Source: Candidatus Poribacteria bacterium
Lineage (GTDB): Bacteria > Poribacteria > WGA-4E > WGA-3G
Direction of reading: 5' to 3'
NCBI GenBank assembly: GCA_965198235.1
Contig: OZ240248.1
Location: 2,464,001-2,528,000 of the forward strand
Length of the DNA: 64,000 nucleotides
In this document: positions 55,921 to 57,795 of the stretch, one piece after another
How the letters are laid out: each line of letters opens with the position of its first letter
Position numbering within the stretch: position 1 is the stretch's first letter
Notes under the pieces: model-generated
Databases searched by the model: none
What the model saw: the letters and a program-made list of their open reading frames with translations, nothing else
What the model was told of the DNA's origin: nothing
Program-made: the position numbers and the translations under genes

Positions 55921-55948
55921 AAACACACCCTTGGAAAGACACAACGCA

Positions 55949-56602
55949 ATGAACCGAATTGTAGAACCGGAAGTCATGGATACCGCGGAAGCCGCCGAAG
56001 CCTACGATGCGATGGAGCACGGTGAGGTCGACCGAGCTTTTGTGGACCGTGTTGTCGCTCTCGGTGCGAGCACTGGACATTTTCTTGATGTCGGCACCGG
56101 TCCCGCGCAGATTCCGATCCTACTCGCACAACGTTGTCCGGATATCCATATCACCGCCATCGACTTGTCTGAAGAAATGTTAAAGATAGCGAAACGCCAC
56201 GTCGCAGATGTCGGTCTCACCGATCGGATAACCCTCGAACTCGTCGATGCCAAGACCCTACCCTACCCCGATAACACCTTTGACGGACTCATCTCCAACA
56301 GCATTGTACATCACATCCACGATGCGATGACAGCACTCCAAGAGATGGGCAGAGTTGCGCGTCCCAAAGGAACTGTTCTTATCCGCGACCTCATCCGTCC
56401 TGAAACGCCCGCAGATGCACAAGCCTTTGTTGATCGCTATACTGCAGATGACACCCCTTATCAACAGAAATTGTATTACGACTCCTTCCTTGCCGCGTTC
56501 ACCATTGCCGAAGTCAACGAGATGCTGACACAGATGGACATGCCGGGTGCCGCCGTCGTCCAAAGCACTGACCGGCATTGGTCTATTGAGCGTGCTGTCT
56601 AA
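55949..56602 (+). CDS. Class I SAM-dependent methyltransferase
   Basis: LDVGTGPA, AIDLS, DAKTLPY, SNSIVHH. Confidence 0.88.
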   Translation: MNRIVEPEVMDTAEAAEAYDAMEHGEVDRAFVDRVVALGASTGHFLDVGTGPAQIPILLAQRCPDIHITAIDLSEEMLKIAKRHVADVGLTDRITLELVDAKTLPYPDNTFDGLISNSIVHHIHDAMTALQEMGRVARPKGTVLIRDLIRPETPADAQAFVDRYTADDTPYQQKLYYDSFLAAFTIAEVNEMLTQMDMPGAAVVQSTDRHWSIERAV

Positions 56603-56610
56603 TCAATCTT

Positions 56611-56987
56611 CCCGCCAAGACCCCATGCTTCAGCTTGGGGATGTAGGCGGGTTTTCACTTTTCCCTTGACATAAGTCGTCAAAAACGTTAGAATAATCTT
56701 GTAGTGCAAGGTTGCGAGTTAGGCTGCTGTTTGCTACCCCCGTGTGTGACTCGTGTAAAGCTACAGCACAAGACGGAAAAGAAACAGCATGCTGTATGTC
56801 ATATTTGAGTGTAATGGACACAACAGGTCAAAGTGTTGGTCCGATAAAGTTCACTCTCAGAACAAAAAGGCACTTTTTAGTGCGAGGCTCGCTTAGTGCG
56901 CCTCTGTGGAGCAGACGTAAGACCTTCCTCGGAAAGCAGACTGCGATGAAGCACAAGCCCCACCCTTTAGGGTGTGGGTGCTATGAC
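56611..56987 (+). mobile_element. Non-autonomous IS200/IS605-derived element without tnpA or tnpB
   Basis: Left-end hairpin CCCGCC..CCCCA-TGCTTCAGCT-TGGGG..GGCGGG; right end GTAAGACC...GAAGCACAAGCCCCACCCTTTAGGGTGTGGG...TGAC; tnpB-tail remnant CGADVRP at 56905-56925. Confidence 0.7.
56666..56694 (+). promoter_or_regulatory. Near-consensus sigma-70 promoter inside the IS605-like element
   Basis: TTGACA-17bp-TAGAAT. Confidence 0.7.
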
Positions 56988-57048
56988 AATAGTTACAAAT
57001 CCCCAAGATTCAAATCCAAAATTTTGCACTTCCATAGGAGAAATCGCA

Positions 57049-57795
57049 ATGCCCAAAGTTACATTAGTATTGTCACTATGCTTGCTTTTAATTCTTACCA
57101 GCCTCAGCATCGCCAACGTTGCAGAAGACGGACTCGTCGCTTATTGGCCCTTTGATGAAGGCAAGGGTAAAGAAGCCATAGATCTCACAGGCAACGGACA
57201 CGACGGAGAGTTTAACGGTAAGCCGAAATGGGTTGAGGGAAAGTTCGGGACCGGGCTTGAATTTGACGGTGTGCAGGACCATGTCGTTGTCGCAGACGAT
57301 CCTGCCTTCGCAATCGAGGAAAATATTACCCTCATGGCGTGGTTCAGCCCAAACGATTCACTCACCGGTCACCGCTTAATGAGTAAAAATAACTCCATCT
57401 TCGTCATCTTTGACTTCGGTAATGCAGACAGCATCGATTTTCTTGTCAAACCGAACAATACTTTCGCTCAATCCACAACGACCGATTGGAAAGTCGGTGA
57501 ATGGTATCACTTCGCAGGCACCTTTGATGGAAAAACAATGAAGGTTTACATAAACGGCAAACTCGAAGGTGACGCTGCCAACAATGTACCGATTGCTCCT
57601 TCCCCTTTAGAACTCTGGATTGGTGGCGATGATCTCGGCAACGCCACCGACCACTTCCCCGGCAAAATTGATGAAGTGCGACTCTATGAGAAAACCTTAA
57701 GCGAAGCCGACATCCAAAAGGTCATGGAGACACCGCAGGATGTAGAAGCGCGTGGGAAACTCACCACAACATGGGGGAAAATAAAAGGTCTTTAA
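57049..57795 (+). CDS. Secreted LamG/concanavalin A-like domain protein
   Basis: GLVAYWPFDEG.G, GKFG.GLEFDG, WYHFAGTFDG, GKIDEVRLY; tail VEARGKLTTTWGKIK. Confidence 0.9.
   Translation: MPKVTLVLSLCLLLILTSLSIANVAEDGLVAYWPFDEGKGKEAIDLTGNGHDGEFNGKPKWVEGKFGTGLEFDGVQDHVVVADDPAFAIEENITLMAWFSPNDSLTGHRLMSKNNSIFVIFDFGNADSIDFLVKPNNTFAQSTTTDWKVGEWYHFAGTFDGKTMKVYINGKLEGDAANNVPIAPSPLELWIGGDDLGNATDHFPGKIDEVRLYEKTLSEADIQKVMETPQDVEARGKLTTTWGKIKGL

Follow-up and report, generated by a model that had tools for sequence, protein, structure and literature searches.

Location and Boundaries of the Mini-Element

The window analysed here, a stretch of 64,000 nucleotides from a Candidatus Poribacteria bacterium, contains a 446-nt spacer between a SAM-dependent methyltransferase gene and a Laminin_G_3 (LamG) gene, and this spacer is the site of a mini-element. 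The features of the locus are as follows:

55931..56602, + strand: class I SAM-dependent methyltransferase gene (Pfam Methyltransf_11, E 6.3e-22), adjoining the left end of the element
56600..56603, + strand: left flank at the TAM position, TAAT, overlapping the methyltransferase stop codon TAA (56600-56602); the family consensus is TTCAT/TTTAT
56604..56987, + strand: whole protein-less IS200/IS605 mini-element, 384 bp, defined by own-genome matches, boundary alignments and the lack of a Pfam-matching ORF
57049..57795, + strand: LamG/Laminin_G_3 gene (Pfam PF13385, E 1.6e-29) with a signal peptide

The LamG gene has the same orientation as the element and lies 62 nt downstream of its right end.

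In an alignment of 23 genomic copies of the right end, 11 finished with ...GGGTGCYWTGAC (TGAC) and 12 with ...TATCAC (TCAC), and the flanking sequences of all 23 diverged directly after TGAC or TCAC. Most left ends in the same genome were preceded by TTATC or TTAAC, and TTCATC was present at the left end of 13 of the 17 family copies from the window genome and related genomes. The orthologous locus was inspected in 29 other genomes of the genus, none of which carried the element. Thirteen of these loci held the flank upstream of LamG, and the alignment began exactly at 56988 in 11 of the 13. The empty sites of the relatives read ...aaatatgTTAT|AATAgTgACAaatCCCCaag... (junction atatgTTAT|AATAgTgACAaatCCCC). 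With an insertion point after TTAT, the last base of the element is 56987, its first base is C 56604 and its length is 384 bp. The sequence-only reading made earlier of this DNA had started the element at 56611 and ended it at TGAC 56987. The right end was confirmed by the diverging flanks and by the homology regained at 56988, and the start was moved to approximately 56604.

The same reading had reported neither a transposase nor a nuclease ORF, and this agreed with our results: the mini-element contained short ORFs only, and its three longest ORFs matched no Pfam family at E ≤ 0.1. A Cys-rich ORF of 34 aa (56704-56808), beginning 3 nt past the predicted transcript start, and an ORF of 35 aa (56789-56896) in the old tnpB frame had no family match and were broken by indels in other copies; both, lying in the head and tail described below, are probably non-coding, as judged from these alignments. 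A third ORF, of 147 aa, was also without a Pfam match, and indels break its frame in other copies.

Insertion Site and Predicted Guide Segment

Across the insertion point, the empty sites form an extended -10 box, TGtTATAAT, for LamG. This comparison places the element within the native LamG -10 box, directly after TTAT. The window is without the upstream half of the LamG promoter and without the rest of the spacer (95-1144 nt in relatives). The left end is fused to the methyltransferase stop codon (gtcTAAT|CAATC), and the methyltransferase genes of the relatives end in gctgtYTAAT. We read the missing promoter half and the junction of the left end with the methyltransferase gene as the probable result of a later deletion. 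After this deletion the TAM position is TAAT, versus TYAT in the family, so the copy is probably fixed in place. The window copy is also unique, with no identical sister copy in its own genome, which together with the altered TAM position makes present-day mobility and homing doubtful.

The promoter inside the element had earlier been suggested to drive LamG as well, and this remark gains support because the element interrupts the native -10 box and the rest of the LamG promoter is gone. The outward-reading promoter of the element now probably drives LamG through the omegaRNA region. The most evident consequence of this copy is that LamG, deprived of its native promoter, now follows a near-consensus promoter of the same orientation.

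The methyltransferase-LamG spacers of several relatives (L099, L101, L111, L112) contained paired AGCCCCAGCGGGGCG hairpins followed by a promoter-like box, TTGACATTCG..., which suggests that this spacer collects further small mobile elements.

Directly downstream of the right end lies the predicted guide:

56988..57003, + strand: predicted guide segment AATAGTTACAAATCCC, covering the original LamG -10 box (3' half) and the bases just downstream

At up to one mismatch, its sole match in the genome was its own junction site. When the 16-nt guides of 12 copies were searched with up to three mismatches, self matches were the only ones at zero mismatches, and the matches with one to three mismatches were scattered, without a consistent upstream motif.

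Relationship to Full-Length tnpB Elements and to Other Copies

A search of the spacer against its own genome gave 19 matches, and permissive BLAST showed the repeated parts to be the first ~49 nt and the last ~100-190 nt. Where left- and right-end matches lay 1.38-1.8 kb apart, they flanked a tnpB gene and, in one case, also a Y1 tnpA gene. The nearest such element is:

G000:C1:2530801-2532184: element A, a full-length tnpB element, 9.8 kb downstream of the mini-element and 2.8 kb past the window end

The left end (56603-56651) was 94-96% identical to the full-length elements A and B (94% for A). The right end was 88% identical to element A and 91% identical to tnpB-linked copies of another genome of the genus. 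Two proposed checks thus gave positive results: tnpB loci with the same right end were found as element A and as tnpB-linked copies with an equivalent right end in other genomes of the genus, and family copies with unrelated flanks occurred in both the window genome and related genomes. As expected of a PATE-like element, the subterminal hairpins have homologous counterparts in protein-coding elements of the genome. Judged by its ends, the mini-element is a PATE-like non-autonomous derivative of an IS200/IS605 (IS1341-type, tnpB-only) insertion sequence. Within the genus, 23 of 24 further genomes contained its 3' module; none was detected in the 16 genomes sampled from three other families in the same order.

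Further protein-less elements were observed in the same genome. A second family of ~405 nt is represented at G000:C1:2116448-2116860(-) and C1:3503221-3503633(-) (L122, L123), with a third copy at C1:4641661-4642064(-) (L124). The second family has a left-end hairpin, a TTGACA-17-TATAAT promoter, an AAGGTTG...GTGTAAAGCT head of its own and a TATCAC end. Two of its copies are near-identical and have different flanks, which indicates that such elements moved recently in this genome. A minimal element of 109 nt (G000:C1:1962912-1963026; L010/L015) consists of the left-end hairpin fused to the last ~80 nt of the right end, without promoter and without head.

All eight full-length tnpB elements inspected carried a conserved leader of ~85 nt just before the start codon, for example at G000:C1:2530900-2530990 (L002/L011). 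Its nested stems (TATCACG...CGTGATA, GGCAGAC...GTCTGCC and GCGTAA...TTACGT) are unlike the head of the mini-element, and the leader may regulate tnpB translation.

The RuvC D/E/D triad was located by the catalytic residue numbers of ISDra2 TnpB. Element A encodes a protein of 367 aa (G000:C1:2530990-2532090) that matched OrfB_IS605 and Cas12f1-like_TNB (Pfam) and aligned with ISDra2 TnpB (8BF8/8EXA) over residues 27-365 at E 5e-41, with the D/E/D residues aligned. The triad was kept in 22 of 22 full-length TnpB homologues of the genome. With no nuclease-dead protein among these 22, nothing points to a nuclease-dead derivative, which had been named earlier as a possible user of the RNA. Element A and two more tnpB genes of the genome are of the TGAC type. 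From right-end identity only, we infer that the TnpB proteins of these genes may be compatible with the mini-element RNA. The genome also gave six matches to Y1_Tnp (PF01797) above the cut-off; a Y1 TnpA would be available in trans and is predicted to act on the ends of the mini-element.

Terminal Hairpins and Promoter

Upstream of the predicted transcript start, two features were located:

56611..56651, + strand: left-end subterminal hairpin, followed by a T-rich run (56652-56662)
56666..56694, + strand: sigma-70-type promoter TTGACA-17-TAGAAT, 11/12 matches

The left-end hairpin has an outer stem CCCGCC/GGCGGG and an inner stem CCCCA.GC/GC.TGGGG, and its DNA fold gave -13.1 kcal/mol (z -3.77). 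The right-end hairpin (56957-56979) gave z -2.52 and covaries among copies. The T-run, which was not flagged by the scan that found the promoter, could conceivably act as a terminator. The promoter consists of TTGACA (56666-56671), a 17-nt spacer and TAGAAT (56689-56694); its hexamers recur at the equivalent position in most aligned copies and in full-length elements. The promoter scan found two promoter-like sites in 56400-57200, versus 0.8 expected. Both end hairpins and the promoter, all recognised earlier from the letters, were thereby recovered.

Predicted RNA and Its 3' Scaffold Module

An RNA starting at approximately 56701 would have 287 nt up to the right end, composed of an 88-nt head, a hypervariable linker and a 181-nt module. 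Its parts are:

56701..56788, + strand: 5' head, 88 nt (start at 56701 predicted)
56701-04/56761-64: head helix P1 (GUAG/CUAC)
56715-19/56749-53: head helix P2 (CGAGU/ACUCG)
56726-32/56782-88 (TGCTGTTT/AAACAGCA) and 56740-43/56773-76 (CCGT/ACGG): head pseudoknot helices, both crossing P2
56789..56806, + strand: linker joining the head to the 3' module; both its length and its sequence are hypervariable (mean pairwise identity 31%), whereas the segments on either side are conserved
56807..56896, + strand: decayed tnpB 3' tail, now RNA stems, identified by DNA-level alignment to the element A tail and by compensatory changes; stems 56807-12/56851-56, 56815-24/56835-43, 56871-74/56879-82 and the 5' strand of 56883-90/56898-905
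56897..56987, + strand: right-end part of the omegaRNA-like scaffold, finishing ...GCTATGAC, identified by similarity to element A and by covariation; stems 56911-14/56941-44, 56921-28/56931-37 and the right-end hairpin 56957-66/56969-79

The structure was evaluated on 15 copies with the architecture of the window copy, drawn from its own genome and from related ones and aligned from GTAGTG, seven bases past the -10 box, to the right end. Of the 71 pairs in the RNAalifold prediction, 23 showed compensatory changes. The structure used for counting was defined by us from the RNAalifold 3' helices and the four-helix head. Its 66 pairs were formed in 95.2% of cells, versus 31-44% when the partners were slid, and 27 pairs (92 cells) showed changes on both sides; the covariation score was reached by none of 500 shuffles. 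The scaffold and the added 88-nt head are under structural constraint.

The tail stop codon TAG (56894-56896) aligns with the stop of element A (...NILRLA*), and the helix 56883-90/56898-905 spans this old stop. The last four of the seven module helices were also present in 16 tnpB-linked copies. The first three are derived from the tail, and a UUCG-capped hairpin replaces the NAAINI codons. Since the sequence of this tail-derived half (56807-56896) has drifted from the coding version, its equivalence to the 5' part of a nuclease-linked omegaRNA is only plausible. As a whole, the scaffold has the composition of an omegaRNA: it combines the 3' end of tnpB with the right end, finishes at the transposon boundary and shares the stop-codon position. 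The hypervariable linker may mark a joint formed by recombination, or a site of processing.

A peptide CGADVRP (56905-56925) had been taken for the remnant of the tnpB tail. This proved incorrect, as the peptide is read in a frame other than that of tnpB and from DNA past the aligned stop; in most of the tnpB-linked relatives compared, the ORF continues over this DNA in a different frame (...PSVEQT*). The proposed Rfam and covariance analysis was borne out in one part, the covariation across copies. In the other, a search of 56000-57600 at E ≤ 10 gave no Rfam family match for head or module, and Rfam may hold no model for this clade. Matches to narK (E 0.74, minus strand, at the methyltransferase end) and snoU83 (E 6.9) were far below the gathering scores and were put down to chance. 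A predicted pairing of 56744-48 with GCACA near 56950 was invariant and clashed with the pseudoknot, and was left out.

The Pseudoknotted 5' Head

The head was the most conserved segment of the 15 copies, with a mean pairwise identity of 89%, compared with 75-77% for the module and 31% for the linker. Its unpaired conserved motifs are AAGGTTG and GTGTAAAGCT. Heads of this type (type a) vary little: the G-C pair of P2 is changed to A-U in 5 of 15 copies, and in one copy UU/AA in the long pseudoknot helix has become GG/CC. Of 60 other genomes of the genus, 29 carried the type-a head together with the promoter, and every alignment stopped at 56787.

A second type of head (type b) occurred in 16 of the 60 genomes, with the same order of elements and the unpaired motifs AGGUUG and GUAAAAC. 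In 14 copies its topology was formed in 89.5% of cells, versus 26-47% when slid, with eight double-change pairs and a score reached by none of 500 shuffles. By eye, its inner pseudoknot helix appeared as TATATC/GATATA, AGATAC/GTATTT, ATATGT/ACATAT and CATAATTT/AAATTATG; the count understates covariation in this helix, part of which is hidden by register shifts in the alignment. The structured 5' region described earlier therefore stands, with the pairings TGCTGTTT/AAACAGCA and CCGT/ACGG now seen as helices of a pseudoknot whose topology covaries in the type-b head. When the window and 15 loci were searched with a covariance model of the type-b head, no type-a or family-2 head was recovered; the single match, a weak one, was to a copy in G000 (17 bits, E 0.12). 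The type-b model therefore does not serve as a common model for all head types.

Elsewhere in the genus, the head of the mini-element is followed by another 3' module, which matches the region directly downstream of a second-clade tnpB gene of this genome (C1:78372-79352). The second TnpB clade, 28% identical to the element A protein, was observed at G000:C1:78209-79352(-) and C1:4725631-4726203(-). No tnpB gene was found within ~1.5 kb of the head at the 64 head-bearing loci examined, some of which overlap. Every head observed lay within IS200/IS605 ends and was followed downstream by a right-end scaffold, either full or truncated. In ~186,000 species genomes, a gapped head motif occurred at 34 places, 28 of them in records of Candidatus or uncultured Poribacteria; the other six are within chance by a rough estimate.

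A tentative and rather unlikely proposal is that the head, including its conserved AAGGUUG and GUGUAAAGCU loops, represents a novel functional RNA domain that, with the left end and promoter, forms a portable expression cassette recombined by protein-less IS605 elements onto scaffolds of at least two TnpB clades. If this were true, the head might stabilise, process or gate the guide RNA and so allow gene-less parasites of the TnpB system to compete for the nuclease.

Presence in RNA Libraries

The stretch was present in four sponge metatranscriptome runs of one study. In all four libraries, contigs carried the copy-specific interior (56743-56927 or 56758-56920) with zero mismatches. One contig bridged the right end into LamG (56958-57404). 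Another (56602-56772) took in the promoter itself, which implies read-through or library DNA. The contigs give no ends, strand or usable depth, and thus attest presence in RNA libraries rather than prove transcription. Of the refuting conditions named with the sequence-only reading (no transcript, no cognate tnpB, no structural conservation among copies), none was borne out, the first being judged on these contigs. Contig depths differed among the interior, the left end and the neighbouring genes, with some parts uncovered, and cannot rank the parts of the gene. In three runs, the bin 56731-56817 had a summed depth of 373-908 from other contigs, in which the shared head is followed by a different 3' module; these show that related heads are present in the libraries, and nothing more.

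Proposed Mechanism and Alternative Explanations

Taken together, these results make it probable that the mini-element is a PATE-like element whose guide RNA is used in trans by TnpB, with this copy probably fixed and its promoter probably transcribing LamG. The mini-element keeps the last ~180 nt of its parent (tnpB tail and right end), which specify the omegaRNA scaffold in this family, and the retained left- and right-end hairpins would be substrates of Y1 TnpA. The element inserted after TTAT in the LamG -10 box, and a deletion then probably joined its left end to the methyltransferase stop. Transcription from approximately 56701 would produce an RNA of ~290 nt whose 3' end reaches into the flank, with AATAGTTACAAATCCC as its guide. 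An A-type TnpB with an intact RuvC triad, encoded 9.8 kb away, would bind this RNA in trans. After TnpA-mediated excision, TnpB would cut the empty site, and recombination would restore the element.

There is a real chance, somewhat short of even, that the element now serves LamG mainly as a captured promoter and 5' leader, its scaffold being only a long 5' UTR with no TnpB-related activity. The insertion splits the native LamG promoter within the -10 box, the upstream half of this promoter is missing, the co-oriented LamG gene begins 62 nt from the right end, and one RNA-library contig bridges 56958-57404; the non-consensus TAM position and the missing sister copy likewise suggest an immobilised copy. 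However, the conservation of scaffold and head across copies with unrelated flanks is left unexplained by this account. In addition, the next ORF is convergent in 6 of the 10 protein-less copies of this genome, so driving a downstream gene is no general property of the family. The role as LamG promoter is compatible with the guide-RNA interpretation and not exclusive of it.

It appears improbable that the mini-element is an inert, decaying transposon relic whose copies are similar owing to recent spread, with no function. Such a relic would fit a single and probably immobile window copy, and both the transcription of the mini-element RNA and its binding by TnpB are arrived at by inference. Yet within the same copies the linker has fallen to 31% identity while the head retains 89% and the module 75-77%. 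Compensatory changes in 27 pairs, promoter hexamers kept in most copies and the occurrence of the family in most sampled genomes of the genus also argue against mere decay.

We consider it improbable that the RNA acts through its 5' head in a role other than guiding, such as protein binding or ligand sensing, with the omegaRNA part as a passenger. The exceptional conservation of the head (89%), its pseudoknot with covariation in the sister type, its joining to scaffolds of two TnpB clades and the lack of tnpB within 1.5 kb of 64 head-bearing loci are in keeping with such a role. Against it, the head occurs only inside IS200/IS605 ends, upstream of a complete or truncated right-end scaffold; it matches no known RNA family, and no candidate for a ligand or partner presents itself.

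A guide for a nuclease-dead, TldR-like TnpB repressing a promoter is scarcely credible: the guide does correspond to LamG promoter DNA, but the insertion site simply accounts for this, none of the 22 full-length homologues has lost D/E/D, and the guides of the 12 copies match their own junctions only, here a site preceded by the right end and not by a TAM.

Under the favoured interpretation, use of the guide RNA in trans by TnpB, the mini-element offers a clean, well-bounded example of guide-RNA genes outliving their nuclease. It occurs in a sponge-associated host lineage with more than 20 tnpB genes, and the empty-site comparison fixes both guide and target. The effect on the host would be concrete, namely replacement of the promoter of a gene for a secreted LamG-domain protein. 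Conservation is highest not in the guide scaffold but in an extra knotted 5' domain, common to elements serving different TnpB clades; this may point to a layer of guide-RNA expression or stability that has yet to be studied. Neither the head nor the replacement of the LamG promoter changes the known picture of TnpB biology.

Comparison with Known Systems

Insertion sequences can supply outward-reading promoters to neighbouring genes. The mini-element resembles them in that its promoter faces LamG, whose own promoter is destroyed. It differs from the hybrid -35/-10 promoters that insertion sequences form at their junctions, as here an internal left-end promoter reads through a guide-RNA scaffold.

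At the protein level only, the system was compared with the ISDra2 TnpB-omegaRNA complex (PDB 8BF8/8EXA/8H1J), which it resembles in the conserved D/E/D triad, in a predicted RNA composed of the 3' end of tnpB and the right end, and in a guide taken from the flank.

Protein-less omegaRNA elements, both stand-alone omegaRNAs and PATEs that carry them, are already in print, as far as the available parts of the literature extend. A search for Poribacteria together with TnpB, IS605 or IS200 returned no match among the records listed, which is not evidence of absence. Stand-alone omegaRNAs of OMEGA systems were described by Altae-Tran et al. (2021), as summarised in the available part of PMC10691335, and are reported there to be active in trans with compatible effectors. 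The mini-element is like them in being a mobilised locus without effector or transposase in a genome that also has effector-bearing loci (PMC10691335, available part).

The closest parallel is found in Geobacillus stearothermophilus, where PATE-like minimal IS200/IS605 elements encode omegaRNAs (Meers et al. 2023; PMC10055086, available part). As in the Geobacillus PATEs of that text, the mini-element has ends in common with tnpB elements of the same genome, carries no protein gene and keeps the omegaRNA region, and the same use by TnpB in trans and mobilisation by TnpA in trans are proposed. A description of the head was not found in the available parts of the literature on PATEs and stand-alone omegaRNAs, and within these the conserved head is the only part of the element that looks undescribed. 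Unlike the Geobacillus PATEs as described in the available part of PMC10055086, the mini-element family combines a strongly conserved promoter with an 88-nt pseudoknotted head carried on the scaffolds of two TnpB clades.
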